Of a DNA stretch of 64,000 nt, positions 15,002 to 62,178 are shown in pieces. The DNA is from Parcubacteria group bacterium CG10_big_fil_rev_8_21_14_0_10_36_14. GTDB taxonomy: Bacteria > Patescibacteriota > Patescibacteriia > GCA-002772895. How positions within the stretch are numbered: the stretch's first letter is position 1; each line of letters begins with the position of its first letter. The stretch is from positions 6,728 to 70,727 of the forward strand of contig PFCS01000050.1 of assembly GCA_002772895.1 (NCBI GenBank). Reading direction: 5' to 3'. Position numbers and translations under genes: made by a program. The notes beneath the pieces are model-generated. The model was not told the origin of the DNA. It did not search any database and saw nothing but the letters and a program-made list of their open reading frames with translations.

Positions 15002-15005
15002 ATTT

Positions 15006-20761: not shown

Positions 20762-22132
20762 CTATTTAACTAAAATTTCCAATAAAGAATTGGCAATTCT
20801 TTTATTAGCTTGCCCATCATTTTTATAACATAATTGTTCCACTATCCTTCTTCTTCCTTCACTATGCAGGCTATAATTTTCTAAATATTCATTAATCTGA
20901 TTCTTTAAATCCTCAGGACTACTCACCATGCTAACTCCGCCGGTTTCAACCACGTCATTAAAGTGACTGAAAGAATAAAAATAATTTACCGAATGCCTAA
21001 AATCTGCCTGTGGCACAGCATCAAACGCTATGCTTATAAGTGGCTTATCTAGCATTGATCCGTCCAAAGAAAGCGTTGAACAGGTAGATATTATTACATC
21101 CGAATGATAAAGCATATTAAAAAAATCAATCATTTCTTCTTTTGACGCATCCCACGAATCTAAAAATAGATTTGTTATTCTGTGTTTATTGTCTATATAA
21201 ACAAAATCGTATTTATTAAATTCGAGAAAACGTTTTTTTTCTATGTCCGAATAATGCGGACGGATGACCAAAGAAGCATCGTGCAATAATTCTTTATTTT
21301 TTATAAAATTGCATATTATATTAGCCACTCCCTCATCTGCCCGACCCCAAAGACCTTCTGAACCAAAAAAAATTAATTTTTTATTGGGGTCAAGCCCCTT
21401 TTTTTTAAAAAATTCTTCTCTCAAAATAATTAATTCTTTTTTGGAATAAATATCAAACTGCGGAAATCCTGTAACTAAAATTTTTTCGGCACATATATTC
21501 TGCAAGTTACTAACCGTCTCCTTCATTGATTGATTAAATACTATCATTTTGTCTGGTTCTACCCTAAAAAGCCGACGATCAACCGTATCCCATCCTTTTG
21601 CCATAGCAACTGTTTTTATTTTCTTTTTTTTAGCAATCTTTAGAAAAGCAATATCTACTTTCCCTAAAATAGTAGTAGAAAAAATTAGGTCTGGTTTATA
21701 TTTATCAAAAAAGTGTTCATATTTTTTTTCTTTAAAAAGATAGAGTTCCAGCCATCTAAAAATTTTTTTTAAAACGGTGCTTTGTGATAAAACCCCAAAT
21801 ATACCAGCCTCCAAAAAATATATAATTGTATTTTTACCTTTTTTTTTGTACGTTCCATAACGCGACAATAGCCGCGAACCTTTCGTATAAACAAGATTAT
21901 CAATCAATGGAAGAAAAAATTTTCTTTGTATCCTTGATAACTCACCTTCTCCAGTATTTTCAATAATAATTCTCGAATGATTAAATTCTTCTTTAAGATA
22001 TTGAGGTGCTTCTGAAGGAAGCATCAAAACAATTCTGATATTTTCGTCTCTTAATAAATGATCTATTATTCCTGTTCTTAATATATTTCTCGCAATGATT
22101 CCTCTACTTATAATAATAAAAATTGTTTTCAT
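20762..22132 (-). CDS. CDP-glycerol glycerophosphotransferase family (TagB/TagF-like) protein; putative polyol-/sugar-phosphate transferase.
   Basis: C-terminal HSDVIISTCSTLSLDGSMLDKPLISIAFD parallels the TagF motif DILITDYSS...LLDKPIIFYAYD, and VIRPHYSD parallels the TagF histidine region. 456 aa. Paralog of 25248-26615. Confidence 0.55.
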   Translation of the reverse strand: MKTIFIIISRGIIARNILRTGIIDHLLRDENIRIVLMLPSEAPQYLKEEFNHSRIIIENTGEGELSRIQRKFFLPLIDNLVYTKGSRLLSRYGTYKKKGKNTIIYFLEAGIFGVLSQSTVLKKIFRWLELYLFKEKKYEHFFDKYKPDLIFSTTILGKVDIAFLKIAKKKKIKTVAMAKGWDTVDRRLFRVEPDKMIVFNQSMKETVSNLQNICAEKILVTGFPQFDIYSKKELIILREEFFKKKGLDPNKKLIFFGSEGLWGRADEGVANIICNFIKNKELLHDASLVIRPHYSDIEKKRFLEFNKYDFVYIDNKHRITNLFLDSWDASKEEMIDFFNMLYHSDVIISTCSTLSLDGSMLDKPLISIAFDAVPQADFRHSVNYFYSFSHFNDVVETGGVSMVSSPEDLKNQINEYLENYSLHSEGRRRIVEQLCYKNDGQANKRIANSLLEILVK

Positions 22133-31676: not shown

Positions 31677-32625
31677 ATAATATTTTTTTCACTTTCTCAG
31701 CAATGAAAATTTCCGTATTTTTCATTGAGTCATAAGTTGCACCACCGATGTGCGGAACAATTATTAGATTATTATGCGACTTAGTATATTCAAGAAGCAA
31801 ATTACCTTTTAAAAATTCTCCACCAGCGGTTTCTTCTGCCATAACATCAAGCCCTGCTCCGGCAATTTTCTTGGCCTTTAAGGCATTTAAAAGCGCGCTT
31901 TCATTTATAATTTTTCCCCGCGAAGTGTTTACTAGATATGCGCTTTCTTTCATCATCTTAAATTCCCGTTCACCTATTAAATCAACCGTCTCTTCATCCA
32001 AAGGCACATGCACGCTAATAAAATCAGCCCGCGACAGAAGCTCTTCAAAAATTGCTGACTCTGCCGCGCCACGCTCAATTTCCTCTTGGTTAACATACGG
32101 ATCATAGGCAACAACATTCATAAAAAACGCATTTCCATATTGAGCAATAATTTTTCCTAGCCGTCCAAAACCAATTATTCCTAAAGTTTTACCACGCAGC
32201 TCTATACCCTTAAAACTATCACGGTCCCAATTTTCTTTTTTCACCGACTCATATGCATCAGGTATATGCCGGATTAAAGCCAAGAACAGTCCCCAAGACA
32301 ATTCTGCAGTAGCTGTTATTGTATTTAAAAATTCCGTCTCCCCCTTTAAGCTTGCAACTTGCACGCCATGCTTCCCTGCCTCTTTCATATCAATATGGTC
32401 CAGCCCGGTTGTCGGACAAGCAATAATTTTTAAATCTTCCGCTGCATCTAAAATCTCTTTATCAATTTTATGTTCTAAACGGATAACTAAAATATCAGCG
32501 TCTTTTACGCCTGCCAGTAATTCACCTCGCGATAATTTCTTTTCTGCAAAAACATCTCCCACCTCTTGATAAATTGCAAGCGCCTCCTTACTGTAATCGC
32601 CGGGTTCACTAATTAAAATTTTCAT
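31675..32625 (-). CDS. D-isomer-specific 2-hydroxyacid dehydrogenase (SerA/GhrB/PdxB-like, NAD-binding).
   Basis: GKTLGIIGFGRLGKIIAQYG (GxGxxG), ...ISVHVPLDEETVDLIGEREFKMMKESAYLVNTSRGKIINESALLNALK...GAGLDV is the D-2-HADH catalytic domain pattern. Confidence 0.8.
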   Translation of the reverse strand: MKILISEPGDYSKEALAIYQEVGDVFAEKKLSRGELLAGVKDADILVIRLEHKIDKEILDAAEDLKIIACPTTGLDHIDMKEAGKHGVQVASLKGETEFLNTITATAELSWGLFLALIRHIPDAYESVKKENWDRDSFKGIELRGKTLGIIGFGRLGKIIAQYGNAFFMNVVAYDPYVNQEEIERGAAESAIFEELLSRADFISVHVPLDEETVDLIGEREFKMMKESAYLVNTSRGKIINESALLNALKAKKIAGAGLDVMAEETAGGEFLKGNLLLEYTKSHNNLIIVPHIGGATYDSMKNTEIFIAEKVKKIL

Positions 32626-35312
32626 AAGTTTGTAATTTTAGACAAAACGTCAGTCGCTATATCCTGACCATTATTTTCAAAAGTATTCTTTCCAAGCTTT
32701 GGAAATCCTCCGCCAAAAAATTCTTTCTTCTGATAGACGGATATTCCCGTCTGGTTGCCGGAAATTATATTGTCATATATTTTTGGTTCAGACAAGTCTT
32801 TCACAGCAATACCCATAACGCATCCATTAAGCTTATTACTAAAAATATCCGGATTAGAGTTTTCTCCCAAACTGATGCATTTATCGCCTGAACTTTTTAC
32901 TTCATTATTCGATATTTCCACGCTGGAACCGGAAATATCAATTCCGTCATTACCGTTACCATCAAAAATGTTGTCATAGATCTTACCACTTATAAAATCG
33001 CCGTCCAAACCGTCAAATCCATTTTTATAAAAATAAGAGTCCACTATTTCTACTTTTGCATTTTTAACATTCAATCCGTCATCCCCGCCGGCATATTTAA
33101 ATTGACAATTTTTTATTGAGATATCCGAACTGTGGCTTGCCAGGGCACCGGAAAAATGAATTCCATTTACGCGAGTATCCCCGCCATATTCAAATTCAAC
33201 ATATTCAAATTCACTCTTCTCCGGCACATCCACTATGCCAAAATTTCCCCAATAATCGTTGGAGTTCGCCGATAAAAATTTAATCGGATAGTCCTTACTT
33301 CCTTTAGCAATAACTGGGCTATAAGAACCGATTGATACTCCTTTTGCCATATAAAAAATTGCACCCGGCTCTATTTTTAGATGAATCCCCTTCGGGACTA
33401 TTAGCGTTTTATTAATATAATACGTACCCGCCGAAACATATGCGTCTCCATTTCCCGTAGCTTTAAACGAAGGATTTTTAGATATAAACTCATTAAGAGA
33501 TAGGTTGATATCATCTAAATTATTAAAATTACTATTATCTATATAAATTACTTCCGAACCCACTTTTTTACCGGTTAAAGAATTATCCAGCTCCATGTCA
33601 ACCGCAAAATCATCCGAATAAAATCCGGTTCCAATGCCTGCGGTAAAAAATATTTTATGGGTTACAGGCTGTAGAATAAAGCCTGTTCTTACATATTCAT
33701 CGTCATACTTATCAGCAGGAGGAACAAGTTTGGAAGATAGCACTATTTTCTGTTCTCCAAATTTAGCTTCTCCGTCCTTGTTAACAGTGTCTTTTTCTAA
33801 AAGAATATCGGCCGAGGTTAATTTTCCATCCATATCGCTGTCATAATAAGCGCTTACCAGAAAACCAGGAACAAGCCCGCTTATTTTTATTTCTTTTATC
33901 GTCATATCCACCGCGCTGTTTACCGTTATATCAGCCTCTGCAATTTCATAGTTTAAGAATGAATTTTTGTTATAGATAACCTTTGTAAAGGCTTCCGATT
34001 TTTTAAGATATTCTTTTATGAAATTAAAATTACTTTCTATCAAGCTCCTTGTTTCCTTATAACCCTTGATAAAAGTGCTATTTGAAAAATTCTTTTTCGA
34101 ATCCTTAAAAAATTCAATGCGGACGCTGTTGTATAAATCATCTATAAACTTTAAATCATCTTTAAGATTATCTTTGTCGCTAACATAATCCCAAGCCCTT
34201 TGGTTTATTTCAGTGGCAAAATCTGGAGATTCTAAAACGCGCGTTATAAGAGGATTAAAGAAAAGATAAGGAGAACCGATTGAAGCCAGGTCATTTCCCT
34301 CTGATTGCCAAGTAAAAAATTTAAATTTTCCATTTGTATTATCATAATACAAGTTCATGTTATGTCTCCAGTCCTCATGATTTCCACCAATTAAAAGTGT
34401 GTGCAAATACCACTCCATAAAACTTTTCTTATCTACAATATTAAAAATATTGTCATGAAATTCTTCTTGGTCTGCCTGGTTTACTAAATATGTAAGGCGA
34501 GCAATTGCCACGTAATTATCCGGTCTCTCGCCCGGATCAGCAACTCTTTTATCCCAATAATAAGGATCTTCAAAAATATATTTTTCATTTATATACCTTT
34601 CCGTAAAAAAATCAGTATCTCCAGAAAGTTTGTTTGTTTCCAGAAACTCTTTGCTCCATTGATTTATCTTATAATAAACTCCATATGCCTTGCCATTTAT
34701 CCTAAGCAACACAAAATCGCTGTCCAACACCTTTAATCCAATCTTTTCCGCTCTATAGTTATTGAACGGTTCAAGTAAATCACCGCCCACAATAAGATTT
34801 ATCGCACTCGTCCCTTCAAAAATCGCAGAATCACTAAATCTTATGCGCCATGATTTTTTATCATATCTCCAATGAAAATCAGAATTGCCTCTATATCTTA
34901 CCTCAACATTATAACTCTTACCCCCATATGAAAACTTGGCATTTATATACTTTTGATTTTCCTCAACAAACATCGCACCTTCTTCGGTTGGCAACGAATC
35001 ATTTATTTTCTTCCAATCTTTCTCGTCTATTATCAAATCGTAAACAGGCAGGTCTGGTTTCTTAAAAGAATAAATCAAATACGGCGCATCTTGGATCTTG
35101 CGCACAATTTTATCGGCCCATTTTGAATAAGGTGCTGGAAGTATGCTAAAAAGATATCTTTTTTTAATGCCATAATCATAAAAAAGAGATACAAGCACAA
35201 CCAAAACAATCAGATTGGCCACAAAAAGGCACCTGAAAAATATCTTTCTAAATACAGGGCTTCTTAATTTGTTATTTAATAACTTTATATATCTTAATAT
35301 CATCTGAATCAT
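32622..35312 (-). CDS. Large membrane-anchored/secreted protein: N-terminal CotH-family (atypical kinase) domain fused to a C-terminal right-handed parallel beta-helix (pectate-lyase/NosD-like) repeat domain.
   Basis: N-terminal TM segment (FFRCLFVANLIVLVVLVSLF). CotH-like core reads FSYGGKSYNVEVRYRGNSDFHWRYDKKSWRIRFSD...INLIVGGDLLEPFNNYRAEKIGLKV...LRINGKAYGVYY. C-terminal beta-helix repeats read NGFDGLDGDFISGKIYDNIFDGNGNDGIDISGSSVEISNNEV...GISVY. Paralog at 55840-58659. Confidence 0.65.
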   Translation of the reverse strand: MIQMILRYIKLLNNKLRSPVFRKIFFRCLFVANLIVLVVLVSLFYDYGIKKRYLFSILPAPYSKWADKIVRKIQDAPYLIYSFKKPDLPVYDLIIDEKDWKKINDSLPTEEGAMFVEENQKYINAKFSYGGKSYNVEVRYRGNSDFHWRYDKKSWRIRFSDSAIFEGTSAINLIVGGDLLEPFNNYRAEKIGLKVLDSDFVLLRINGKAYGVYYKINQWSKEFLETNKLSGDTDFFTERYINEKYIFEDPYYWDKRVADPGERPDNYVAIARLTYLVNQADQEEFHDNIFNIVDKKSFMEWYLHTLLIGGNHEDWRHNMNLYYDNTNGKFKFFTWQSEGNDLASIGSPYLFFNPLITRVLESPDFATEINQRAWDYVSDKDNLKDDLKFIDDLYNSVRIEFFKDSKKNFSNSTFIKGYKETRSLIESNFNFIKEYLKKSEAFTKVIYNKNSFLNYEIAEADITVNSAVDMTIKEIKISGLVPGFLVSAYYDSDMDGKLTSADILLEKDTVNKDGEAKFGEQKIVLSSKLVPPADKYDDEYVRTGFILQPVTHKIFFTAGIGTGFYSDDFAVDMELDNSLTGKKVGSEVIYIDNSNFNNLDDINLSLNEFISKNPSFKATGNGDAYVSAGTYYINKTLIVPKGIHLKIEPGAIFYMAKGVSIGSYSPVIAKGSKDYPIKFLSANSNDYWGNFGIVDVPEKSEFEYVEFEYGGDTRVNGIHFSGALASHSSDISIKNCQFKYAGGDDGLNVKNAKVEIVDSYFYKNGFDGLDGDFISGKIYDNIFDGNGNDGIDISGSSVEISNNEVKSSGDKCISLGENSNPDIFSNKLNGCVMGIAVKDLSEPKIYDNIISGNQTGISVYQKKEFFGGGFPKLGKNTFENNGQDIATDVLSKITNL

Positions 35313-37104
35313 ATACTTTTATTAACCAGTCTTCGCCTTCCAGACTGCTATTTTTTATAAAATCATAAATGCCTTCACTTTTATAGGCACCAAAATACAA
35401 ATAATCAATCTTATATTTATTGATCAAATAATGGATATTGCGCGGATACGCCATATACAATTTCGATATGTCGCCAAGCTTTTCCGCAATAAGCTTTTCT
35501 GCTGTTTTCTCATATTCTGGATCTTTTTTGAATTGGCTACCAATTCTTGTATCACTAAAATAATCTCCAAATAAATACAGCGAATCTTTATTTATTATCC
35601 CATCAAAAACATCTTGCGAAACATTAAACAGCTTATGGACAATAATCCACCGGTCATAAAGCTCTTCGGAAGATCCAGGAAACATCATTGGGTCTCCGTA
35701 CATTACTTTGCCAGAAGTATATACGGGCACCAAAAAATTTATAAAAAGCGACGGAGAAACAACGACCGCATCTTTTTCTATATTTTTATCCATCCATTCC
35801 AGCGAATTACTAATATTTTTAGGGATAGTATGAGCCGGATAATCCATTATCCCCCTATATATATTTACATGAACTGCGCGTGCTGTTATTATAAGCGCCA
35901 ACAAAATAAAACATCCGGTCACAATCTTTCGCCTCGTCGGATATTTCGCTTCCAACCACTTATATAAAGTATAGGCAAAGGCTATCCAAGCCAAAGCAAA
36001 TCCGTAATAAAATTGATGGTAATACCAATTTGTAGCAAAAGGCGAATATCCTCCAAAAAGCTGGATATTAAGCAGGAATATTGGCGCCAATGCAAAGCCT
36101 ATTAAATATATGGCAGTCTTTTTTTCTTTTATTGTTTTCCAAATAAGCAAAGCAAAAGCAACATACAGTAGATATTCGAAAACATGCCGTCCCAAGCGGA
36201 GCGTCCTGCCAAATTCGCCCCCTAAACGCAAGAATATGTCCGTTGACCACGGAAGGGACTTAAGAGCAAAGAAATTAAAGAAAAATAGCGATGAAATCAG
36301 CATGGCCAGCATTAAAATCCAAAAAATTCTTTTTGCCACCAAATGGTCTTTAAATAATAAAAATAATATCATCATTATCCCCAAAGCAGTCCAAATGTAC
36401 ATAGCGCTTGTTGGAAAAAAATAAACGAGCAAACCACTAAATATTCCGGCTAAGGCTATATACAACTTCTTTCCTTTTGTTATGGCTAAATATGTAAAAA
36501 GAAAGGTTAGAGAAAAAGGAATAAGCCCCGGCAATACCGATACGCTGTCATATTTATTCGTAAGGATGTGGATTGGCGGGCTACCCAAAAAAGTCAGCGT
36601 TCTTACAGAAATCTTTATCTGCTCCAATGTAATGGGAAATATCAGATAAAAAATATTTGCGGCTGAAGTAAAAACAAGAGAAGAAAAAATGCTAAAATAT
36701 CGGTTGCCGGTTATATTTTTTATAATCAAATAAAAAATTAAAAAGGTAAAAAAACCCACAATAAAATATCCCACCAAATAAAGATACTGCAGGGAGCCAA
36801 ATAGAGCAACCAGAGGAAAAAGAAGCCATGCATTATAATATGTACTCCAAAGCGCAGGCGCGTGCATATACTCATATGTTGCGCCGTCAGACCCCAGCCA
36901 ATGCCCATCCAAAAGATCCCTTATTTGCGGAGCAATAAAAGTGATTGGATCAGGCGCTCCTGGCACAAAATCACTATAAGGTAAACCATATTCTTTCAAT
37001 TTGAAAAAAGCTGACGCTTTAGTTAAATCAAAAATACAACCCGCAACTATGGCGGATAATAATACTGCTACTATAAGTAATGTCTTTTTCTTTTTTTTAT
37101 CCAT
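35272..37104 (-). CDS. Large polytopic membrane protein with C-terminal extracytoplasmic domain; candidate GT-C-fold glycosyl/oligosaccharyl transferase or polymerase.
   Basis: 610 aa, more than 12 predicted TM helices, then a ~200-aa soluble C-terminal domain (YPAHTIPKNISNSLEWMDKNIEKDAVVVSP...). No diagnostic motif recognised. Overlaps the downstream gene by 41 nt. Confidence 0.45.
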   Translation of the reverse strand: MDKKKKKTLLIVAVLLSAIVAGCIFDLTKASAFFKLKEYGLPYSDFVPGAPDPITFIAPQIRDLLDGHWLGSDGATYEYMHAPALWSTYYNAWLLFPLVALFGSLQYLYLVGYFIVGFFTFLIFYLIIKNITGNRYFSIFSSLVFTSAANIFYLIFPITLEQIKISVRTLTFLGSPPIHILTNKYDSVSVLPGLIPFSLTFLFTYLAITKGKKLYIALAGIFSGLLVYFFPTSAMYIWTALGIMMILFLLFKDHLVAKRIFWILMLAMLISSLFFFNFFALKSLPWSTDIFLRLGGEFGRTLRLGRHVFEYLLYVAFALLIWKTIKEKKTAIYLIGFALAPIFLLNIQLFGGYSPFATNWYYHQFYYGFALAWIAFAYTLYKWLEAKYPTRRKIVTGCFILLALIITARAVHVNIYRGIMDYPAHTIPKNISNSLEWMDKNIEKDAVVVSPSLFINFLVPVYTSGKVMYGDPMMFPGSSEELYDRWIIVHKLFNVSQDVFDGIINKDSLYLFGDYFSDTRIGSQFKKDPEYEKTAEKLIAEKLGDISKLYMAYPRNIHYLINKYKIDYLYFGAYKSEGIYDFIKNSSLEGEDWLIKVYDSDDIKIYKVIK

Positions 37105-37110: not shown

Positions 37111-38520
37111 CTACTTTGTTGGGCGCAAATAATTAAAAACTCGCTTTAATATAAGCTTCAAATGCGCGGGCGATCTTAAATCCCGTAAAACGTTAAAAAC
37201 AATTCTTGGCCTTAACCAAAACCCCAAAAAAATCTTCCTATGCCATTTTTTTAAAGTTTCTCTACTAATACCCTTTGGACAAACAGTAATATTATCAAAG
37301 CGTATCTTGTCCCAATCAACGCCATCAATCCGCCCACTTTCTTTGAGCCATGTATACATTTCCGATCCTGGGAGTGGAAGATAAAAATTAAACCCAGCCC
37401 TATCCAGCATAAGCTTTCTAGAAAATTCATAAGTTTGCCTCAAATCATCCTCATTTTCCTCGGGATAACCGATTATAAAAGCACCACCAGTCCTAAATCC
37501 CATTTTTCTAATGGCTTTTATTCTTTCTTCAACCATTTCTTTTTTTATGTGCTTATTCATATGGTCCATAATCCTCTGGGAACCAGACTCAATTCCTACA
37601 TGAATTGCATAAAACCCAGCTTTTTTCATTAATTTCAAAAGCTCGTCATCCAGCGTGTCCAAGCGAAGACCATTTGCACCAAAAAGCGAAATATTAAAAT
37701 TATTAGCCACTATTTTCTCAAGTACCTCTACTGCACGCGCCCTATGGGCTGTAAAATTATCATCCATAATATGAAATTCCTTGATACCATATTTTTCTAT
37801 CGCCCATTTCATTTCCTCTATAATATTATCCGCGCTTCTCATCCTCATATTTCTACCAACCACCGACTTTGAGGCGCAAAAAGTACAATTATAAGGGCAT
37901 CCTCGCGAAGTTACCAAATAGCCGATAGGGAGCTGTTTAAAGAAACTTCCGGCTGGTGCCTCGGGATATTCACCGGGTGGCATAAAGTCCCACGCCGGAA
38001 ACGGAAGACTATCTAGGTCTTCTTCAAAATAAACGGGATTAAAAAAAACTTCCCCTTCGCTTCTATAAACAAGTCCGGGAATATGGCTTAGGGGTATGTC
38101 TTTATTTTGAAATAATTTTTCAAGGAGCATCTTTAGACCTTTTTCTCCTTCACCCTTAAAAGCAAAGTCAATTTTATCAAAGTAGCCCATCAATTCTTTT
38201 GAATCTATAGCTGAAGCATGCGGACCACCAATTACCACAAGGACTTCTGGATTAGCTTCTTTTGCTACATTAATTTGCTCTTTTACTATTTTTATATTGT
38301 TTGAATACACCGTAACCCCTATGACATCCGGCTTTTTTTCCAAAACATATTCTTTAAATTTTTCTGGCGATACTTGTTTTAGGGTACAATCAAGAATTTC
38401 AATATTACTCCATCCATCTTTTCTTAAATATGAAGCAAGATAGCCCAAAGAAAGAGGCGGAGTTATTGCATAACCAAGAGTGCTAAAGGGTTTAACAAAT
38501 AAAATTTTCTGCTCTTTCAT
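37111..38520 (-). CDS. B12-binding-domain radical SAM enzyme (class B rSAM), paralog 2.
   Basis: N-terminal B12-binding-like region (ILFVKPFSTLGYAITPPLSLGYLASYLRKDG) and cluster motif TSRGCPYNCTFCAS. 469 aa. Confidence 0.8.
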   Translation of the reverse strand: MKEQKILFVKPFSTLGYAITPPLSLGYLASYLRKDGWSNIEILDCTLKQVSPEKFKEYVLEKKPDVIGVTVYSNNIKIVKEQINVAKEANPEVLVVIGGPHASAIDSKELMGYFDKIDFAFKGEGEKGLKMLLEKLFQNKDIPLSHIPGLVYRSEGEVFFNPVYFEEDLDSLPFPAWDFMPPGEYPEAPAGSFFKQLPIGYLVTSRGCPYNCTFCASKSVVGRNMRMRSADNIIEEMKWAIEKYGIKEFHIMDDNFTAHRARAVEVLEKIVANNFNISLFGANGLRLDTLDDELLKLMKKAGFYAIHVGIESGSQRIMDHMNKHIKKEMVEERIKAIRKMGFRTGGAFIIGYPEENEDDLRQTYEFSRKLMLDRAGFNFYLPLPGSEMYTWLKESGRIDGVDWDKIRFDNITVCPKGISRETLKKWHRKIFLGFWLRPRIVFNVLRDLRSPAHLKLILKRVFNYLRPTK

Positions 38521-38529: not shown

Positions 38530-39258
38530 TTACTTTTTAAATTTATTTATTACCATTCCGTACTCTTTTAGAGTTTTAATTAAATTCATCTTACTCTTCC
38601 CTTTTTTTAATCCGTAATTATAAACAAGAGGGCATTCATCAATTTTCTTAACAAATTTTCTTAATTTTAATAAAATCTCTAAATTGGCCGCAAAAGAATT
38701 TGTAGTAATAAAATTATTCCCATAAAATGCCAATGCTTTTTTTAGAATTTCTGCCCGATACGCGCGATAAAAAATAGAATAGTCCGTCACATTTGGCAAG
38801 TGGACCAATAACTTGACAATACTATTTACTACATTGCTACCAATGGTGCGGTACAACGGAAAGTTTTTATAACTTCCGCCCGCTATGTAGCGGGAACCTA
38901 TAACTATATCGCTTCCTAAATTTATTTTTTCTATCATCTCAGGCATTAAGGAAAGCTTACTCGTATTATCCGCTTCCATAATCAAAACGATATCGTCGTC
39001 CTCCGCATTAACACAAGCCGCCGTAATACCATCAAAAAAAGTCCTTGGTACGCCCAAATTTTTAGCGTGAACAAGAATTTCTAAATCCATCTGATTTTTA
39101 AAATTCATTGCTAGTTCTTTTGTTTTATCCGTGCTTCCATCGTCAACTAAAATTACTTTTTTATCAAAAATTAATTTTATATTCTTAATGCTAGACAATA
39201 AATCAACGACATTCTCGTCCTCATTATAGGCAGGGATAATTATAAATATTTTTTTCAT
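38530..39258 (-). CDS. Polyprenol-phosphate sugar synthase, GT2 (DPM1/GtrB-like).
   Basis: KIFIIIPAYNEDENVVDLLSSI...VILVDDGSTDKTKELA...VLIMEADNT are DPM1 hallmarks. 242 aa. It lies immediately downstream of the B12-rSAM gene (9-nt gap). Confidence 0.8.
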   Translation of the reverse strand: MKKIFIIIPAYNEDENVVDLLSSIKNIKLIFDKKVILVDDGSTDKTKELAMNFKNQMDLEILVHAKNLGVPRTFFDGITAACVNAEDDDIVLIMEADNTSKLSLMPEMIEKINLGSDIVIGSRYIAGGSYKNFPLYRTIGSNVVNSIVKLLVHLPNVTDYSIFYRAYRAEILKKALAFYGNNFITTNSFAANLEILLKLRKFVKKIDECPLVYNYGLKKGKSKMNLIKTLKEYGMVINKFKK

Positions 39259-51687: not shown

Positions 51688-52473
51688 TTATTTTTTTATG
51701 GCGTCTTTTGATAAAATCAAATGATAGCGCACAAACCTCCAAATAAATTTAATAGGTAAACTGTCTTTCGGATGCATAATTTTATCATATAGCGACTTTC
51801 GTAATATGTTTAGAGCTTTTAAAAAATTTATTACCGCTACTCTTGATCCTTTTCTAAAACCCAAACCGCTTCTTTTCTTTTTCATTATACTTAAATAATT
51901 ATTATCTTTTATAATACACTCATCATAAGTAGGCCATCCGCTTATTGCAGTTGATTTTAGATATACACTTTTTACATTTTCGGGAATTATCAGTGTTTCA
52001 TGAACAACTTTCTTGGGGTCAAAATGAATTCCGGTTTTAAGGTTAAACAACCTAGGATAATAATCCGGCATGAAAAAAGCGTATTTTATGATGCGTCCGC
52101 TTTTTAACAAAGGAGAACGTTGGATACATCCGATAATATTTTCATCCTCGGATTCGATAAAGCTGCTAATCTCATTTTCAAGCTCCGAAGTTATATATTC
52201 ATCAGAGTCTATGTCAAAAATCCAGTCATAGCGGGCAAAGGACAGTGCCCTATTCCTCATCTCGGCAAAATTTGAAATACGCACATTAGGCTCATTGGTA
52301 TCAACTTGCTTATAAACTGGGATATTATATTTTTTTGCTATTTCAAGGGTTTTATCCGTGCTGTTTCCATCAACAAGGTACACGTCATCAAAATTTATCA
52401 GGCTAGAAAGCAAACGCTCAAGCGTCTCCTCGTTATTTAATGTCAAAATTGGTACTGAACAAGCTATTTTCAT
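51688..52473 (-). CDS. Glycosyltransferase family 2-like protein.
   Basis: MKIACSVPILTLNNEETLERLLSSL...VYLVDGNSTDKTLEIAKKY...DIDSDE is a GT2-type N-terminal fold with a DxD/DxSDE motif. Start trimmed to MKIACS. Confidence 0.55.
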   Translation of the reverse strand: MKIACSVPILTLNNEETLERLLSSLINFDDVYLVDGNSTDKTLEIAKKYNIPVYKQVDTNEPNVRISNFAEMRNRALSFARYDWIFDIDSDEYITSELENEISSFIESEDENIIGCIQRSPLLKSGRIIKYAFFMPDYYPRLFNLKTGIHFDPKKVVHETLIIPENVKSVYLKSTAISGWPTYDECIIKDNNYLSIMKKKRSGLGFRKGSRVAVINFLKALNILRKSLYDKIMHPKDSLPIKFIWRFVRYHLILSKDAIKK

Positions 52474-53189
52474 AAAGTTGCAAAGACATAAATTTCTGCA
52501 CACAATTCTGCAGGAATATCTTTACTTACATTATACAAAGCGCTAATCATTTTTGGCTCTAATCCATTCAATTGACTATTAGATAACATCTTAAGAAAAA
52601 AACCGCCTTTTTTCTTTATTTGCCAACCAGCACCTTCAATATCAGCAACAAGGCTCTTCATGTCATAAATTCTCTGATGACAAAACTTTATATCGCGTTC
52701 ATTAAATTCATATAAATTTTCTAACATACCCATTTCCTTTCCGATTTGACGATGAAGAGATTGTGCATTTGGAACATTAATATATATCATACCATCTTCT
52801 TTAATTAAATTTTTATATTTTTTTAATAACTCTACAGGCTCATCAACTTCGTGCAACATACTAGAAAAAATAATTGCATCATATTTTTTATTCGATTCGA
52901 AATCAATAAATAGCGAATGATTAAATTTAATGGCTTCTGCCTTAGCTCCTAATTTTTTTTTCGTTGCTAAAATATAATGTTCGCCGCCTTCTACAACCTC
53001 TAAGGATTTACTAATTTCTAAAAGATTCTTAGTCATTAATCCGTTTGCGCACCCAAGCTCTAATGCATCTCCTAAATTTGGATAATTTTCTTGTAAACAT
53101 CTAAAACGAAAATCAATAAAATAGCGATCAAAATCAACTTCCGTATTATAACACCCTGCATATTTATTTATTGAATCTTTAGTCTGCAT
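52470..53189 (-). CDS. Class I SAM-dependent methyltransferase.
   Basis: ALELGCANGLMTKNLLEI (motif I), ...AIIFSSMLHEVDEPVELL...GMIYINVPN. Confidence 0.75.
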   Translation of the reverse strand: MQTKDSINKYAGCYNTEVDFDRYFIDFRFRCLQENYPNLGDALELGCANGLMTKNLLEISKSLEVVEGGEHYILATKKKLGAKAEAIKFNHSLFIDFESNKKYDAIIFSSMLHEVDEPVELLKKYKNLIKEDGMIYINVPNAQSLHRQIGKEMGMLENLYEFNERDIKFCHQRIYDMKSLVADIEGAGWQIKKKGGFFLKMLSNSQLNGLEPKMISALYNVSKDIPAELCAEIYVFATL

Positions 53190-55839: not shown

Positions 55840-58659
55840 ATGCTCAAAATAATAATTGAAAAGCACAAAAAGAAACTGCTGGCATGCGCGGTGTTATTTA
55901 TTATCGGTATTTTATCTGCCAATTTATTTTTCTTGGGAATATATATAAGAAACAACAAAAATATCTTGATTTTTGATTCTGCAGTACAATATCTCCTACC
56001 TGTTTATCGATTTATGCGCAAAAGTTATAATAACGCGATAAATACGTTCTATCTGCCAAAAACAATAGGGGCATCGGAAATACCCCACTACAAATTGACG
56101 ATTAAAAAAAATCAGCTGGAAAAATTAAATAAAAATTTGCCTGAGTCGATATCCGATGCCGTTTTTAGCGGAAGTGTTTTCTTGGAGGACGAATATAAGA
56201 AAACAGTGCCCGCAATCTTTTCTTATGGTGACAAAAAATACGAAGTAGAGGTACATTACCGAGGTGACAACCCAAACCATTGGACCAAAGAAAAAAAATC
56301 TTGGCAAATAATATTCAGCCAGGAAAACTTATTTAACGGCCAAGAAGTGTTAAAACTTATATTGCCCATAGACCGAGGTTATCTTGCGGAGGCTCTAAAT
56401 GCTTATCGGGCAAAAAAAATGGGTCTATTGGTGCCTGCGGACAATTTTGTAAATTTAGAAATAAATAAAAAAAATGCTGGCGTATATTACCAAGTCGAAG
56501 ATTGGTCAAAAGGATTTTTGGAAAAACAACAAGTGCCGGCCGACTCCAGTATTTATACGACCAATGACGGTCTTATTAGCCTCAGAAAAGAAGAAAACCG
56601 CCAAGATACATCAGCCTTTGAAGATATAAATCTTTGGAAAAAAAATATATCTGATAAATTATTTACTTATAATAATTTTTCAGATATAAAAAAACTGGTC
56701 GAAATACTGCAAAGCCAAAATAAAGACGAAGCATACAAAATATTGCCACAAATACTTGATATGGAAAAGTTTTACAGCTGGACTAACGTTGCCCTATTGG
56801 TTTCAGGAGGCCATCAGGGAGGTAAAGGCAATATGCGTCTATACTTTAACAATAGTAGCGGAAAATTTGAACCAATCCCTTGGGATGTAACAATAAGAGA
56901 TAGCGATGCGCTTTTTGAAGACTGGCAAAGTATCATCAATAACTTTATATATTCAAATAAAAAATTATTTTTTGAACAAAAAAAATCCCTGTGGAATTAT
57001 TTAAGTAACGAAGATAATTTAAAAGACGACCTAAGCTTTTATGATAAACTTTATGAAACAACACGCCCAGCTTTTTACGATGATTGGATAAAAGTAGACA
57101 ATAATTTAACCTTTGATAAAAAAATAAAAGAAATGCGCGATATTATTAAAAATAGGTTTAGTAATCTAAAAGATCTTTATAAAATTGATAATTCAAGCAT
57201 GATTATAAATTATGACTCCGATATAAATCTGATAACGGCAACGACTAAAGCGGATAATTTCGCCGGCATAATGCTAAAAAGCCTTAAACTACCGACAGAC
57301 GACAATATGTTTGTTGAAGCATTTGATGATTCCAATAATAATCTTAAACTTGATAAGGACGATAAAATCATAAAAACCGGCTACATCAATAAAAATGACA
57401 ACACAATAAAAGATATTAATAAATTAATTTATGATAAAGATGAAGTGGCCATATTCATAAAAATTATTCCTTATGGAACACAGCAAAACGGCTTAAATCT
57501 TAAAAATGTAAAAATAAAATTTGACAATGCAATCACCAAAAAAGATATTGATATAAAAAGCATAGTCTTATCAGACGACACCTCTTTTAATTATCTTCCC
57601 AAGACTATCTATAGTCCTCGGCAATTTGTAAACGAAAATCCCATATTTAAAACAGATGGAGAAAAAATATTTCTACCCGCTGGCTCTTATACCATCACAA
57701 AAAATATAATAATTCCGCAAAAATCCCAGTTGATAATACAGCCTGGCGTTGTCCTAACCTTTTATCCAAAAATATCACTCATATCTTACAGCCCTGTTTC
57801 GGCAATTGGCTATTCCGATAGTCCTATTATATTCCAATCCGCCTATCAAGGGCAACCGTGGGGATCTTTTGGCATAGTTAATACCGAGAAAGAAAAAAAC
57901 AAGCTACAATTTATAAATATATCCGGTGGTGGGAGTTCTTATATAAACGGTATTTTCTTTAGTGGAATGTTATCAGCCTACCATGCCGACCTTGAATTAA
58001 GCGATAGTTTAATTCAAAACAGCTCATCGGATGACGGCGCAAATGCAAAGTACGGAAATGTGGTAATAAAAAATAACAGATTTATAAAAAATAGTGCGGA
58101 CGGCTTGGATATAGACTACGCAAAAGGAGAGATAAGTAATAATTATTTTAGTAGCAATGGCAATGACGGCATAGATATCTCCGGTTCTTCAATCAGTATT
58201 AAAAATAATACAATACTTGCATCAGGGGACAAATGTATAAGCGTAGGAGAGAATTCAAAAGAGCCGGTTATTTTTAATAATATTTTAAATGGATGTAATA
58301 TAGGAATAGAATCAAAAGATTTATCAACCCCGGTTATTTTGAATAATGTCATTATAAATAATAATATAGGCATAAATGCCTATAGAAAAAAAGAGATTTT
58401 TGGTGGCGGATTTGGAAAAATATATAACAATATTATCTGGGACAATAAAGAAAATATAAAAACGGATGAATACTCACAATTCGAAGCTGATTACAACGAC
58501 ATTGAAACCAACTATTCAGGAGAGTATAACTTTTATGAAGAGCCATCTGAAAATTATTATAAACCGGGTTTAGAAAATTATCACGGTAAAGGAAACCGGG
58601 ACATTCTAAAAAAATATCTTGAAATTAATCTTGAGGAAGCTCCGGTAGGGCTAATGTAA
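55840..58659 (+). CDS. CotH-family domain fused to a right-handed beta-helix repeat domain (paralog of 32622-35312), membrane-anchored/secreted.
   Basis: TM anchor LLACAVLFIIGILSANLFFL. CotH-like FSYGDKKYEVEVHYRGDNPNHWTKEKKSWQIIFSQENLF...LKLILPIDRGYLAEALNAYRAKKMGL. Beta-helix repeats ...DGLDIDYAKGEISNNYFSSNGNDGIDISGSSISIKNN...NIGINAY... are colinear with the other copy. Confidence 0.65.
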   Translation: MLKIIIEKHKKKLLACAVLFIIGILSANLFFLGIYIRNNKNILIFDSAVQYLLPVYRFMRKSYNNAINTFYLPKTIGASEIPHYKLTIKKNQLEKLNKNLPESISDAVFSGSVFLEDEYKKTVPAIFSYGDKKYEVEVHYRGDNPNHWTKEKKSWQIIFSQENLFNGQEVLKLILPIDRGYLAEALNAYRAKKMGLLVPADNFVNLEINKKNAGVYYQVEDWSKGFLEKQQVPADSSIYTTNDGLISLRKEENRQDTSAFEDINLWKKNISDKLFTYNNFSDIKKLVEILQSQNKDEAYKILPQILDMEKFYSWTNVALLVSGGHQGGKGNMRLYFNNSSGKFEPIPWDVTIRDSDALFEDWQSIINNFIYSNKKLFFEQKKSLWNYLSNEDNLKDDLSFYDKLYETTRPAFYDDWIKVDNNLTFDKKIKEMRDIIKNRFSNLKDLYKIDNSSMIINYDSDINLITATTKADNFAGIMLKSLKLPTDDNMFVEAFDDSNNNLKLDKDDKIIKTGYINKNDNTIKDINKLIYDKDEVAIFIKIIPYGTQQNGLNLKNVKIKFDNAITKKDIDIKSIVLSDDTSFNYLPKTIYSPRQFVNENPIFKTDGEKIFLPAGSYTITKNIIIPQKSQLIIQPGVVLTFYPKISLISYSPVSAIGYSDSPIIFQSAYQGQPWGSFGIVNTEKEKNKLQFINISGGGSSYINGIFFSGMLSAYHADLELSDSLIQNSSSDDGANAKYGNVVIKNNRFIKNSADGLDIDYAKGEISNNYFSSNGNDGIDISGSSISIKNNTILASGDKCISVGENSKEPVIFNNILNGCNIGIESKDLSTPVILNNVIINNNIGINAYRKKEIFGGGFGKIYNNIIWDNKENIKTDEYSQFEADYNDIETNYSGEYNFYEEPSENYYKPGLENYHGKGNRDILKKYLEINLEEAPVGLM

Positions 58660-58673: not shown

Positions 58674-58704
58674 AGAAATGCCACTATTTTTTAGTGGCAT
58701 TTTT
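58674..58704. terminator. Intrinsic terminator hairpin between convergent genes (CotH paralog on +, GT-C membrane protein on -).
   Basis: aaatgccacta-ttttt-tagtggcattt is an 11-bp perfect stem, extendable by G-U and A-T pairs, with a 5-nt loop and a T-tract downstream on +. The minus-gene stop codon (cta at 58684-58686) lies inside the left arm. Confidence 0.65.
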
Positions 58705-60033
58705 TATTTTATAAGCAAACCCATAGACTCCTAGGGCAATATATATGTATATGTACGGATTGACTGGTTGCCGGAAACGGGAATAAGACGCTACGCCTGT
58801 CGCCAGGACAAAATAATAAATTAAAAAAAGAAGGAATACCGCACTTATTCTATTGTCCTTGAAGCCAAATATCCAATAAAGCACACCAAACAAAGCGAAT
58901 AAATTCAGTATCAAAAGTATTGCCTTGCCACCCAAAAATATGACCCCGCCAACTCCCCTATATTGTAGTACGGGAATTTTTAAAATATCTTTCCAGGAAT
59001 AAAACCAAGTTTCAAAAACTACTCTTTGCTGTTCAAGCGGTGGATATATAGCAGCGGCTGTAGTAAAATAACTATCACCCAGAAAAAAAGGAATCATATT
59101 TGATAAATGAACCTCCATAAAAGCAATGGGATGAGCGGCAATGTACTTTAAAGTAACTAATTTTAGATCATTCATTTTTATGTCACCTATTTCTGCCACA
59201 TTATCACCGACATTTAAATATGTCATCGTCAAATATTTTCTAAAAGCTACGGTTTTGCTTGCTGAAGATAAATCAAAAGTATTAAATAAAACTTTATTCC
59301 TTGCGGCCCAGGGAGAGATCAAAATTATAAATGCTGCAACCATCAACAATATGGCAACAAAATAGCGGAAAAAAGAGCAAAAATTTATTTTTTTAATTAC
59401 TGCTAAGGAAAAAATTACAAAAACTAATAAAATAAATTGCGCGACCGGTCTCACATAATTAAGACATGCCAATAACGCGCCTGTCACAAGAAAAGCTAAA
59501 GGGTTGACCTGGCGGTTTATGAGAATCTTTTTTACAAAAATATAAACGCTAACTACCAATATAAAAGTAAACAATGTCTCGCTAAGCAACTGATTATTCC
59601 AATAAATCACAGCTGGTTCGCACGCATATATGGCCGCCGCTAACAGAGCTATTGATTTTTTTCGCAAGAGCAAAATACACAACTTATAAATAATAACTAT
59701 AACAAAAAGCGCAAGTAAATCTTGGAATAAAACTGTGGGCCAGGCTACGGGAATAAAACGGTAAAAAATAGAAATAACAAAGGGATAGCCCGGCGTCCTA
59801 AAAAACTCATTCTCAAAAGGGGACGTTTCGTTTCTTGAAAAAACACTATGTTCAGATAGATTCTTTGCCAGTGTCAGATACTGCTCAGAATCCTCGCTGT
59901 TATGAGGATAAAAACCCTTATCTCCGAAATTATGTAAAATAAACCCAAAAAAAATTATGCGCAAAATGAGAGCCACCGCTAAAACAAGTAGCAAGCCTCT
60001 ATTTTTCTTAATGAATTTTTTAATTCTAAGCAT
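58684..60033 (-). CDS. GT-C-fold membrane glycosyltransferase, GT39/PMT/ArnT-like (polyprenyl-phosphate-sugar dependent).
   Basis: N-terminus LLLVLAVALILRIIFFGFILHNFGDKGFYPHNSEDSEQYLTLAKNL is the characteristic first TM plus acidic loop-1 (D-E) region of PMT/ArnT-type enzymes. About 11 TM helices, 449 aa. Confidence 0.6.
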   Translation of the reverse strand: MLRIKKFIKKNRGLLLVLAVALILRIIFFGFILHNFGDKGFYPHNSEDSEQYLTLAKNLSEHSVFSRNETSPFENEFFRTPGYPFVISIFYRFIPVAWPTVLFQDLLALFVIVIIYKLCILLLRKKSIALLAAAIYACEPAVIYWNNQLLSETLFTFILVVSVYIFVKKILINRQVNPLAFLVTGALLACLNYVRPVAQFILLVFVIFSLAVIKKINFCSFFRYFVAILLMVAAFIILISPWAARNKVLFNTFDLSSASKTVAFRKYLTMTYLNVGDNVAEIGDIKMNDLKLVTLKYIAAHPIAFMEVHLSNMIPFFLGDSYFTTAAAIYPPLEQQRVVFETWFYSWKDILKIPVLQYRGVGGVIFLGGKAILLILNLFALFGVLYWIFGFKDNRISAVFLLFLIYYFVLATGVASYSRFRQPVNPYIYIYIALGVYGFAYKIKNATKK

Positions 60034-60042
60034 AATAGATGC

Positions 60043-61452
60043 TTATTTAAACTTCATTTGGGTTGACGGCACTTTGGCACCTCTACCAAAACCCAAAATC
60101 CACTTAATAAAAAATTTTGATATTGCTTTTATCGTATTCAAATCGTAAACGCCTATTTTATAAAAACGCCTCAAAATATATTTTGGACGAAAATAAAATG
60201 TTTTAAATGCTTTTTTATAAAATTCTTCCACTTTTTCCGAAGCAACGGTAGGCAATTCCATAATTGACTGAGAAAAATTATATTGGGTCCAATCCTCCGT
60301 TTTTAAATACCCCTCTTCTTTTGCCCAGTAGTACATTTCTGTCCCAGGATAAGGCGTGGCAATATTAAAAACCGCTAAATCAGGATCGAGCTCCACGGCG
60401 TAATTTAAAGTTTTTTGCATTGTTTCTTCTGTCTCTCCCGGATTGCCAAACATAAAAGCCAACCTACAATTAATCCCAACTTCTTTCGTCATTTTTACGA
60501 CTTCCTCAACGCGTGGCAAATTTATACGTTTCCGAATATTTAATAAAATTTGCGGGTCAGCCGACTCAACACCATACATTATTTGATGGCAACCTGCCTT
60601 TTTTAAAATATCCAAAGTTTCTCTATCCACACAATCAACACGCGAAAAACAAGACCATGATATATTAACCTTTTCTGCGATAACCAGTTCACAAAATTCT
60701 TTTATATTTCTTTTCACCGCAGTAAAAGTATCATCGTAAAAAGATATTTCTCGAATTCCATGGTTTTTTTGTAATAATTTTATTTCATCTAAAAGACGAC
60801 GCGCTGTAAAATATCTTATTCGCGGACCAAAGTTCTGATAACAATAGGTACATGTACCCGGGCAACCTCTCGTCGCTATAAAACCAAAAGCCGGCAATCG
60901 TTTGTATGCTCCTAGGGCTGGATGATACTTTTCCATCGGTAAAAGATGAGTAGGGAGAAATGGTAAAATATCCAAATCTACTAAAAATGGGCGTCTTTCA
61001 TTATGGATAATTTGCTGATCTTTTTTATAAGATAATCCCAAAATTTCGCTCAAGGATTTACCGAAAACAAGCTCGTTCATAGCAAATTCTCCTTCATCAC
61101 GAATAACATAATCTACAAAATCATTCGATAAAACCTCGTCAGGTCTTAATGTGGAATGGACTCCACCAAAAACAATTTTGCTATCTGGAAAAATTTCTTT
61201 ACAAATTTTAGCGCTTTCCAAAGCATTATTTATAATTCTAGTTGTGCCGGTAAGACCAATAAAATCCGGCTTTTCTTTTAATCCTTCTAAACGCAGTTTC
61301 AACAACTCTGCCGTCAATTGTTCTGCACGCGCATCTATCATAATAACTTTTCGTGGCCCTTTTCCAAAAGAACTCCCGCAACTGACAATAAACCTATGGA
61401 TGGGTAGCACGGATTTATAATTGACCATGCACTTATATTGTCTATAATCCAA
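60043..61452 (-). CDS. B12-binding-domain radical SAM enzyme (class B rSAM), paralog 3.
   Basis: ...DFIGLTGTTRIINNALESAKICKE... (B12-binding-like region) and cluster motif ATRGCPGTCTYCYQ. 469 aa. The precise start is uncertain (alternative internal Met codons exist). Confidence 0.75.
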   Translation of the reverse strand: MDYRQYKCMVNYKSVLPIHRFIVSCGSSFGKGPRKVIMIDARAEQLTAELLKLRLEGLKEKPDFIGLTGTTRIINNALESAKICKEIFPDSKIVFGGVHSTLRPDEVLSNDFVDYVIRDEGEFAMNELVFGKSLSEILGLSYKKDQQIIHNERRPFLVDLDILPFLPTHLLPMEKYHPALGAYKRLPAFGFIATRGCPGTCTYCYQNFGPRIRYFTARRLLDEIKLLQKNHGIREISFYDDTFTAVKRNIKEFCELVIAEKVNISWSCFSRVDCVDRETLDILKKAGCHQIMYGVESADPQILLNIRKRINLPRVEEVVKMTKEVGINCRLAFMFGNPGETEETMQKTLNYAVELDPDLAVFNIATPYPGTEMYYWAKEEGYLKTEDWTQYNFSQSIMELPTVASEKVEEFYKKAFKTFYFRPKYILRRFYKIGVYDLNTIKAISKFFIKWILGFGRGAKVPSTQMKFK

Positions 61453-61482
61453 GGAGGATTAATTAATAATACCTTCATAGCT

Positions 61483-62178
61483 TTAATCAAAAAAATTAAA
61501 TTTTATAATACACCACAGGGCGCTAATAGCATCTTTCCAATTTATTTTTTTTCCCTCTTCATATGTCCTACCTGAATAGGAAATACCTACCTCATATATA
61601 CGAAATTTATTTTTTGCAATCTTGGCTGTGATTTCTGGTTCAAATCCAAAACGATTTGATTGTAAAGTAGGACCTATTGTTTCTATTACTTTTTTTACAA
61701 AAACCTTATAACACGTTTCCATGTCAGTTAAAGTTAGATTGGTAAACATATTTGAAAGAAGTGTTAAAAATTTATTTCCCAATAAGTGCCAAAAATATAA
61801 AACACGATGGCTTCCTCCGCCAATAAAACGCGAACCATAAACAACATCTGCCCGCCCTGATAAAATCGGCTCCAAAAGTTTTGGATATTCCCCCGGGCTA
61901 TACTCTAAATCAGCATCTTGAATTAAAAATATATCTCCGGTTGCCTCTTTGAAACCGCGTCTCAAAGCAGCGCCCTTACCCTGGTTCTTTTCTTGATAGA
62001 AAACCCTGTATCTATTCTCTAAACTCTTCAAAATATCACGCGTACTATCAGTTGAAAAATCATCAATTAAAACTGTCTCTTTTTCTATGTCCCCCAAATC
62101 CACAGCATCAATCCTCTCTAATATTTTGAGAATTGTTTTTTCTTCATTATAAATTGGAACAATTATTGATAATTTCAT
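61483..62178 (-). CDS. Polyprenol-phosphate sugar synthase, GT2 (DPM1/GtrB-like).
   Basis: [23 protein letters not shown]...[15 protein letters not shown]...[12 protein letters not shown] are DPM1 hallmarks. It lies directly downstream of a B12-rSAM gene, the same arrangement as 37111-39258. Confidence 0.8.

Follow-up and report, generated by a model that had tools for sequence, protein, structure and literature searches.

Pathways that pair a lipid-linked monosaccharide with a transferase of the GT-C superfamily decorate lipid A, teichoic acids, O-antigens, mycobacterial walls and proteins, and they shape phage, antibiotic and immune recognition. In the ArnC-ArnD-ArnE/F-ArnT pathway, a glycosyltransferase of family 2 (GT2) loads undecaprenyl phosphate with a sugar, a second enzyme modifies it, and a GT-C enzyme transfers it outside. 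In the GacI/GacJ/GacK/GacL and PpgS/Rv3632/Rv3779 systems, a short GT2 works with a DUF2304 subunit to produce a polyprenyl-phosphate-linked N-acetylhexosamine (HexNAc), which a GT-C enzyme passes to a wall polysaccharide; GacJ binds and stimulates GacI, and Rv3632 does the same for PpgS (bioRxiv 10.1101/180810). In the hopanoid pathway, the sugar is added by the GT2 enzyme HpnI, and HpnJ, a B12-binding radical S-adenosylmethionine (radical-SAM) enzyme assigned by gene deletion rather than biochemistry, is genetically required for what is proposed to be the ring contraction of bacteriohopanetetrol-glucosamine to the cyclitol ether; the same conversion has been proposed for the calditol synthase Cds on lipid-linked glucose (PMC13459092). 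C-methylation is the commonest chemistry in the B12-radical-SAM superfamily (PMC12931638). The stretch analysed here, called the window throughout, comprises 64,000 nucleotides (nt) of contig PFCS01000050.1 (positions 6,728 to 70,727; assembly GCA_002772895.1) from Parcubacteria group bacterium CG10_big_fil_rev_8_21_14_0_10_36_14; it holds two diverged copies of an operon type in which a GT2 gene, a B12-binding radical-SAM gene and a GT-C gene follow one another, together with a separate GT2 and DUF2304 pair.

The copy at 58684-62178 is designated module B and the other module A. A first-pass annotation had seen in the former a GT-C enzyme and a DPM1-like synthase, which is correct, and had overlooked the 1.4-kb B12-binding radical-SAM gene that lies between them, as well as its paralog in the same place in module A; that reading is incomplete in its most interesting respect, the region being a GT2-B12-radical-SAM-GT-C module. 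In module B, the GT2 and radical-SAM genes are separated by 4 nt when the true start of the latter is taken, or by 30 nt when its TTG-initiated open reading frame (ORF) is taken, and 9 nt separate the radical-SAM and GT-C genes; the corresponding gaps in module A are 9 nt and 6 nt, and the end of its GT-C gene is overlapped by 41 nt, on the same strand, by the gene for a CotH and beta-helix protein (CotH protein A). Such spacing, from 4 to 30 nt or overlapping, is operon-like. Pairwise identity is 31% for the radical-SAM enzymes (E 6e-62), 28% for the GT2s of the modules and 36% over 845 residues for the CotH proteins flanking them; judged by these alignments, modules A and B are paralogous in their GT2, radical-SAM and CotH partners. 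The GT-C proteins, of 449 residues in module B and 610 in module A, display no similarity detectable by direct comparison and are not paralogs by sequence. The earlier view of GT-C enzymes and DPM1-like synthases as a kit for glycosylation on the outer face of the membrane was largely right: each GT-C gene lies two genes downstream of one for a short soluble GT2, and the predicted families are consistent with outer-face glycosylation from lipid-linked sugars.

We lean, with modest confidence, towards an ArnC/ArnD/ArnT-like pathway in which the radical-SAM enzyme would remodel the lipid-linked sugar before its transfer by the GT-C enzyme. At the cytoplasmic face, the short DPM1-like GT2 would, from its family resemblance, move one sugar from a nucleotide sugar to polyprenyl phosphate; the radical-SAM enzyme, as gene adjacency and its nearest curated family suggest, would then remodel this lipid-linked sugar, for example by C-methylation or by a ring rearrangement of the HpnJ/Cds type; a flippase would carry the product across the membrane; and on the outer face the GT-C protein, whose fold is established and whose activity is a prediction, would hand the sugar to an acceptor. 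The protein acceptor suggested earlier gains no support from these results, nor do they speak against it. The elements directly supported are the two GT-C folds, the GT2 and radical-SAM families, the paralogy of the modules and the recurrence elsewhere of radical-SAM and GT-C genes, with or without the GT2. No description was found in the literature of a B12-radical-SAM enzyme tied to GT39, GT-C, ArnT or polyprenyl-phosphate sugar pathways, and the three-gene module appears uncharacterised.

All three short GT2s of the window match Pfam Glycos_transf_2 (E 1e-21 to 1e-34; 119 bits for module B, 75.6 bits for module A), and for all three the closest solved relatives are the Pyrococcus dolichyl-phosphate-mannose synthase 5mlz (E 1.6e-24 for module B, 3e-23 for module A and 8e-15 for the GT2 of the DUF2304 pair), then ArnC, then GtrB. 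None has a transmembrane (TM) segment, and their GT-A domains carry the DXD-type motifs DAD (residues 88-90 in module B, and again in the GT2 of the pair) and EAD (module A); these features and their nearest characterised relatives place them among the polyprenyl-phosphate GT2 synthases of the DPM1/ArnC/GtrB/PpgS group. The top NCBIfam models are AglJ, PgfS, dolichyl-phosphate-hexose transferase and ArnC for the module B enzyme, none of which reaches its cut-off, and ArnC, PpgS, AglJ and dolichyl-phosphate-hexose transferase for the module A enzyme. As every score lies under the equivalog cut-offs (the best among the GT2s being 104 vs 325 bits for AglJ, 53 vs 529 for ArnC and 212 vs 370 for PpgS), the assignment stops short of sugar specificity. 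Four DPM1-like GT2s had been counted before; there are three, the GT2s at 4015-5109 and 51688-52503 being unlike polyprenyl-phosphate synthases.

The two radical-SAM enzymes match the Pfam families Radical_SAM and B12-binding above cut-off, with 94 and 46 bits in module B and 103 and 68.5 bits in module A. Both combine a B12-type Rossmann domain with a CX3CX2C core (CPGTCTYC at residue 197 in module B, CPYNCTFC at residue 208 in module A), the hallmark of class B radical-SAM enzymes. For the module B enzyme, the best curated model is HpnJ (TIGR03471), followed by BchE; its score of 256 bits lies well below the HpnJ cut-off of 577.6, which a genuine Sphingomonas HpnJ, used as positive control and about 31% identical to it, passes with 582 bits. 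The module B enzyme is thus not an HpnJ by this model, and no hopanoid genes occur among the window genes scanned. For the module A enzyme, the best NCBIfam models are Sden_1168, BchE, ApyD and HpnJ, all far under their cut-offs. The best solved relatives are AprD4 and then the glutamine C-methyltransferase 9ccb. That such an enzyme might act on a polyprenyl-phosphate sugar is supported by analogy, because the substrates assigned to HpnJ and Cds have their sugar on a lipid from the outset; C-methylation and rearrangement are equally plausible as its chemistry. A far more specific version, in which a polyprenyl-phosphate-linked hexose or hexosamine would be turned into a carbocyclic (cyclitol-type) or rearranged pseudo-sugar and then delivered to the cell surface by the GT-C protein, is improbable as it stands; if true, it would amount to a new form of surface glycosylation, whose head groups are remodelled by radical chemistry and resist hydrolysis, in bacteria of the candidate phyla radiation (CPR), DPANN archaea and many anaerobes. 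The island also contains a third B12-binding radical-SAM gene (19053-20657, minus strand, 534 residues, Sden_1168-like with 149 bits), located between a NeuB gene (17960-18994) and a gene for a CDP-glycerol-type phosphotransferase (20762-22132).

In other genomes, the radical-SAM gene is the most conserved partner of the module B genes. Four close orthologs of the 449-residue GT-C protein (49-56% identical) could be located on contigs: two of these Parcubacteria loci (L004 and L099) keep the order GT2-radical-SAM-GT-C, a third (L100) has radical-SAM-GT-C at the start of its contig, and in the fourth (L098) the GT2 gene is followed by the GT-C gene, with a B12-radical-SAM gene four genes downstream. 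Comparison of L004 (1712-5202) with 58684-62178 gives 83% identity for both the GT2 and the radical-SAM enzyme vs 56% for the GT-C protein, values that would agree with a donor-making part that is conserved and an acceptor-facing part that evolves faster.

The same association emerges when the search starts from the radical-SAM side. With one genome taken per species, 40 loci were found with relatives 38-54% identical, 38 of them with a usable anchor; their hosts span about ten phyla and include Goldbacteria, Saccharibacteria, Portnoybacteria, Parcubacteria, Spirochaetia, Cyanobacteria, Planctomycetes, Bacillota, Magnetococcales, Syntrophaceae/Smithella, Bacteroidales, Woesearchaeota and Nanoarchaeota, and a further 11 matches, weaker at 24-36% identity, form a set of their own, mostly from Sphingomonas and other alphaproteobacteria; one of them (L059) is the genuine Sphingomonas HpnJ mentioned above. 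A polytopic protein, counted as such from six TM segments and 330 residues upwards, is encoded within three genes of the anchor in 26 of the 38 loci and immediately beside it in 12. Such proteins make up 43 of the 176 nearby genes (24%) vs 3 of the 128 more distant genes of the same loci (2%; Fisher p=2e-8). PMT_2 is matched by 17 of the 43, and single members match the Pfam families GT87, PMT, ALG10 and PTPS_related; a hidden Markov model of the 449-residue family detects 11 of the 38 loci, and 10 hold a GT2 of about 230 residues, 45-67% identical to that of module B. One woesearchaeotal locus presents a full set of GT-C, radical-SAM, GT2 and second GT-C genes. The core of radical-SAM and GT-C genes, with the GT2 gene in some loci, is shared by anaerobic bacteria of distant lineages and by DPANN archaea. 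Among the 33 immediate small neighbours of the radical-SAM relatives there is neither an HpnK-like (YdjC) deacetylase nor a GtrA-family flippase. In ten loci from Smithella/Syntrophaceae and Bacteroidales (L031-L035, L039, L041, L042, L045 and L046), three to five B12-radical-SAM paralogs lie within a few genes, in tandem in Bacteroidales; beside them are a class I methyltransferase and GT-C proteins, of which some have TPR domains, so that these loci constitute much larger versions of the association.

The 449-residue protein of module B, called clearly GT39-like at first, is a GT-C protein for which the GT39 label was overstated. It scores 20.1 bits against PMT_2 (PF13231), under the Pfam gathering threshold of 26.1; no NCBIfam model matches it, nor does any solved chain in single-sequence or family-profile searches. 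An AlphaFold2 model built on a 29-sequence alignment is all-helical and confident (predicted local distance difference test score, pLDDT, 92; predicted template-modelling score, pTM, 0.92), and fold comparison assigns it the GT-C core. ArnT ties for the top match, and the fold is nearer to ArnT, AglB, GPI-MT-I and ALG12 than to the PMTs, of which Pmt4, Pmt2 and Pmt1 are also among the matches. In the model, helix 12-41 (TM1) is followed by D48 at the start of a loop helix (47-62); this aspartate is invariant in the 29 relatives, and the first loop faces outwards, since the N-terminus is basic. The "DE" formerly noted in this loop reads ED (...HNSEDSEQY...). The protein thus resembles PMT/GT39 enzymes in its GT-C fold, in the acidic residue of the first outer loop and in the presence of PF13231 in most of its homologs at 30-56% identity (precomputed data); unlike PMT1, PMT2 and PMT4, it has no MIR domain, whether by Pfam or in the model, which is without a beta-trefoil, and no other luminal domain. 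As a GT-C protein, it would use a lipid-phosphate-linked donor on the outer face. The gene call of the Joint Genome Institute (JGI) for this protein is 426 residues long, 23 fewer than the ORF; the long start looks right because orthologs of 442-473 residues align over 95-100% of the long form.

The 610-residue protein of module A, the second polytopic candidate of the first-pass annotation, also proves to have a GT-C fold, so that the structural check proposed for the two membrane proteins came out in favour of both. It has no match in Pfam, NCBIfam or among solved chains, whether searched as a single sequence or as a family profile. Its best fold match is the arabinofuranosyltransferase AftA, with ArnT, STT3B, AglB and PglB also among the matches, and its C-terminal domain resembles the C-terminal globular domain of AglB (3vu0). 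Unlike STT3, AglB and PglB, it lacks WWDXG, no WWD being present in the translated sequence. Its relatives form 1,563 representative clusters (50% identity) at E<=1e-3, which points to a large GT-C family for which the Pfam and NCBIfam libraries searched have no matching model.

Several observations weigh against a pathway in which the radical-SAM enzyme remodels the lipid-linked sugar. No flippase gene lies within either module. Cobalamin binding by the B12-like domain is a prediction, and the sugar diol-dehydratase AprD4, which is the best solved relative, binds none (PMC12931638). A homolog of the 449-residue GT-C protein from Uhrbacteria, 35% identical, has neither a radical-SAM nor a DPM1-like GT2 gene nearby, and many of the radical-SAM relatives are found in loci with several radical-SAM paralogs and no detectable GT2. 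A B12-radical-SAM gene is near the 610-residue family in 2 of 37 metagenome loci (among L060-L097), and few have a GT2; the gene order of module A is not a general feature of the 610-residue family and evidence for its conservation is weak, and the 610-residue protein may use a different donor, module A being perhaps a local arrangement. Lastly, the radical-SAM gene of module B is frameshifted and may be inactive in this genome.

The scarcity of radical-SAM and GT2 genes around the 610-residue family leads to the best of the alternatives, namely that the module A protein is not a monosaccharide transferase but an oligosaccharyltransferase-like, ligase-like or polymerase-like enzyme that takes an undecaprenyl-diphosphate-linked oligosaccharide from the Wzx branch, its closeness to the GT2 and radical-SAM genes being incidental. 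Homologs 45-46% identical to it are encoded directly after a Wzx flippase gene, and its AglB-like C-terminal domain and the presence of STT3B, AglB and PglB among its fold matches point the same way. However, the WWDXG motif is missing, AftA and ArnT use polyprenyl-phosphate monosaccharides, and the gene appears to be co-transcribed with the GT2 and radical-SAM genes, since it lies 6 nt from the latter and overlaps the next gene; moreover, one distant member of the family has a B12-radical-SAM gene directly upstream. This alternative is possible for module A, and we rate it clearly below the remodelling pathway.

The frameshift raises the question as to whether module B is decaying. In the 469-residue ORF that starts with TTG, the first 21 or so residues match nothing, and identity to the L004 ortholog is 83% from residue 22. 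The authentic N-terminus lies in another frame, from an ATG at 61478, just past the GT2 stop; it opens with MKVLLINPPW... (MKVLLINPPWIIDNISAWSIINPCYPSIGLLSVAGVLLEKGHE...) and aligns with the N-terminus of that ortholog. These 43 authentic codons (61338-61478) are out of frame with the rest, so that the first part of the Rossmann domain is affected, and the shifted frame ends after 46 codons. The apparent shift is in an A-run at 61348-61351, where the loss of two A or the gain of one A would give a protein of 477-478 residues that runs collinearly with its L004 counterpart. The same shifted ORF stands in the public record PIR66445.1 (461 residues, "hypothetical protein") and in the records of NCBI, JGI, ENA and Logan, and exact look-up of the two repaired versions (477 and 478 residues) in a collection of 15 billion proteins gave no match, so no intact copy is on record. 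Such a shift may stem from an error in sequencing or assembly, from inactivation in the recent past or from slippage of the ribosome. It is doubtful, although a serious contender, that the radical-SAM gene is a pseudogene, with the GT2 and GT-C proteins working alone or also non-functional: the remaining 430 or so codons are free of stops and 83% identical to the ortholog, the GT2 and GT-C genes are intact, and the position of the shift within a short A-run (GAAAAG) leaves room for error, strain heterogeneity or slippage.

The radical-SAM enzyme could also belong to the pathway and act elsewhere in it, either on the nucleotide sugar before the GT2 or on the acceptor of the GT-C protein, be it a glycan, a lipid or a protein. 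The B12-type enzymes GenK and GenD1 have free aminoglycoside sugars as their methylation substrates, and HpnP and HpnR have lipids (PMC12931638, PMC13459092); AprD4 acts on a soluble pseudodisaccharide; and the enzyme ApyD, which acts on ribosomally synthesized and post-translationally modified peptides, is among the NCBIfam matches. Class I methyltransferases are the commonest small neighbour of the radical-SAM relatives (13 of 33) and account for 39 of 90 neighbour proteins in the metagenome loci of the 610-residue family, which suggests heavily tailored sugars. On the other side, the roles assigned to HpnJ, the closest curated family, and to its analogue Cds concern lipid-attached sugars, and the linkage observed is to membrane GT-C proteins, not to nucleotide-sugar enzymes; no precursor peptide turned up, although none was searched for. 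We regard this placement of the enzyme as unlikely, and less so than the last alternative, a plain three-component system of GT2, flipping and GT-C in which the radical-SAM genes are unrelated passengers of the glycan island: pairs such as GtrB/GtrC, CsbB/YfhO, GacI/GacL and PpgS/Rv3779 do work without a radical-SAM enzyme, the GT2 directly adjoins the GT-C gene in L098, the module B copy is frameshifted and a third B12-radical-SAM gene lies elsewhere in the island, but in L004 and L099, as in the two modules, the gene is enclosed by those for the GT2 and the GT-C protein, it is as conserved as the GT2 in L004, and its relatives in unrelated phyla and archaea are strongly enriched for GT-C neighbours, all of which makes mere cohabitation quite improbable.

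Features of the two modules, their CotH neighbours and the GT2 and DUF2304 pair (positions are those of the window)
Feature	Coordinates	Strand	Description
Module B GT2	61483-62178	-	231 residues, short, soluble; DPM1/AglJ/ArnC-like candidate polyprenyl-phosphate sugar synthase
Module B radical-SAM gene	60043-61478	-	Main ORF 60043-61452, 469 residues, TTG start; Pfam Radical_SAM and B12-binding
Module B GT-C	58684-60033	-	449 residues with about 11-12 TM helices; lacks a large extracytoplasmic domain
CotH and beta-helix protein B	55840-58659	+	939 residues, N-terminal TM anchor; convergent with module B
Module A GT2	38530-39258	-	242 residues, soluble, DPM1/ArnC-like
Module A radical-SAM enzyme	37111-38520	-	469 residues
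Module A GT-C	35272-37104	-	610 residues, about 11 TM helices and a C-terminal globular domain
CotH and beta-helix protein A	32622-35312	-	896 residues, N-terminal TM anchor
PpgS/GacI-like GT2, candidate polyprenyl-phosphate HexNAc synthase	5469-6197	-	True start probably near 6125
DUF2304 small membrane protein, GacJ/Rv3632-type partner	5149-5466	-	105 residues, 3 TM segments

The window is a low-GC stretch (about 34%) with nearly all genes on the minus strand, and Pfam scans of almost all ORFs describe a single very large glycan-biosynthesis island. Its contents comprise a WbaP-like initiating transferase and a Wzx flippase; NeuB, CMP-transferase and 2-epimerase sets; two CDP-glycerol-type phosphotransferases; several GT4 and GT2 enzymes; many class I methyltransferases; aminotransferases; and an AsnB-like amidotransferase. 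The ORFs previously named are all present where they had been placed, on the minus strand, the GT2 given as 5469-6125 lying within a longer ORF; its shorter start is plausible, as the match to the PpgS profile, which covers the whole model, begins at residue 27.

Both CotH proteins match the Pfam families CotH, Beta_helix and NosD and are membrane-anchored proteins of about 900 residues with a CotH kinase-like domain and a right-handed beta-helix; the public locus tag of the CotH gene is COU51_04135. Each CotH gene of the window adjoins one GT-C gene, and CotH protein B may be associated with module B. No CotH gene was seen near the radical-SAM relatives elsewhere, and in three other CPR contigs (L101, L102 and L103, at about 7001-11400 in each) the genes that come directly after homologs 40-47% identical are those for VTC and DUF4956, with no GT-C or radical-SAM gene next to them. 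In the window, the VTC and DUF4956 genes are at 14321-15767, away from the CotH genes; the arrangement in the three contigs suggests a conserved CotH-VTC-DUF4956 triad within glycan islands. The idea of a duplicated four-gene module that includes the CotH and beta-helix protein carries little weight, this pairing with GT-C and radical-SAM genes being absent from the other genomes examined.

If the remodelling pathway is correct, the radical-SAM step would add radical chemistry, C-methylation or rearrangement, to the known tailoring of carrier-bound sugars, and one clade within the B12-radical-SAM superfamily, which is very large and mostly uncharacterised, would gain a function that can be tested. 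The presence of this clade in cultivable relatives (Smithella/Syntrophaceae and Bacteroidales) makes experiments feasible.

Among described systems, GacI/GacJ and PpgS/Rv3632 are the counterparts of the separate pair at 5149-6197, which has the same GT2 and DUF2304 architecture. The DUF2304 protein reaches 81.7 bits with the Pfam cut-off at 25.5, and its gene is 2 nt from that of the PpgS-like GT2 on the same strand; it had been taken for a partner of the GtrA type, and is better described as a GacJ/Rv3632-type stimulatory subunit of the GT2 (bioRxiv 10.1101/180810). Unlike in GacI/GacJ/GacL, no cognate GT-C gene adjoins this pair, and the PpgS score of its GT2 remains under cut-off; modules A and B differ from GacI/GacJ in having no DUF2304 gene and a radical-SAM gene in its stead. 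The HpnI-HpnK-HpnJ pathway offers the closest parallel for that gene, with a GT2 that attaches a hexosamine to a lipid, and with ring contraction that genetically requires a B12-binding radical-SAM enzyme (PMC13459092); it lacks the GT-C partner found here, and its deacetylase HpnK has no counterpart among the immediate small neighbours of the radical-SAM relatives. Unlike in the Arn pathway, the modifier in modules A and B would be a B12-type radical-SAM enzyme and not a deformylase, the modules have no ArnE/F-like flippase, the NCBIfam ArnC cut-off is not reached and the ArnT model is unmatched, and the window of this Parcubacterium has no lipid A genes. Nonetheless, it is the ArnC-ArnD-ArnE/F-ArnT pathway that the modules would most resemble in their overall plan of loading, modification and external transfer, with ArnC among the best relatives of all three GT2s and ArnT tied for the top fold match of the 449-residue GT-C protein.

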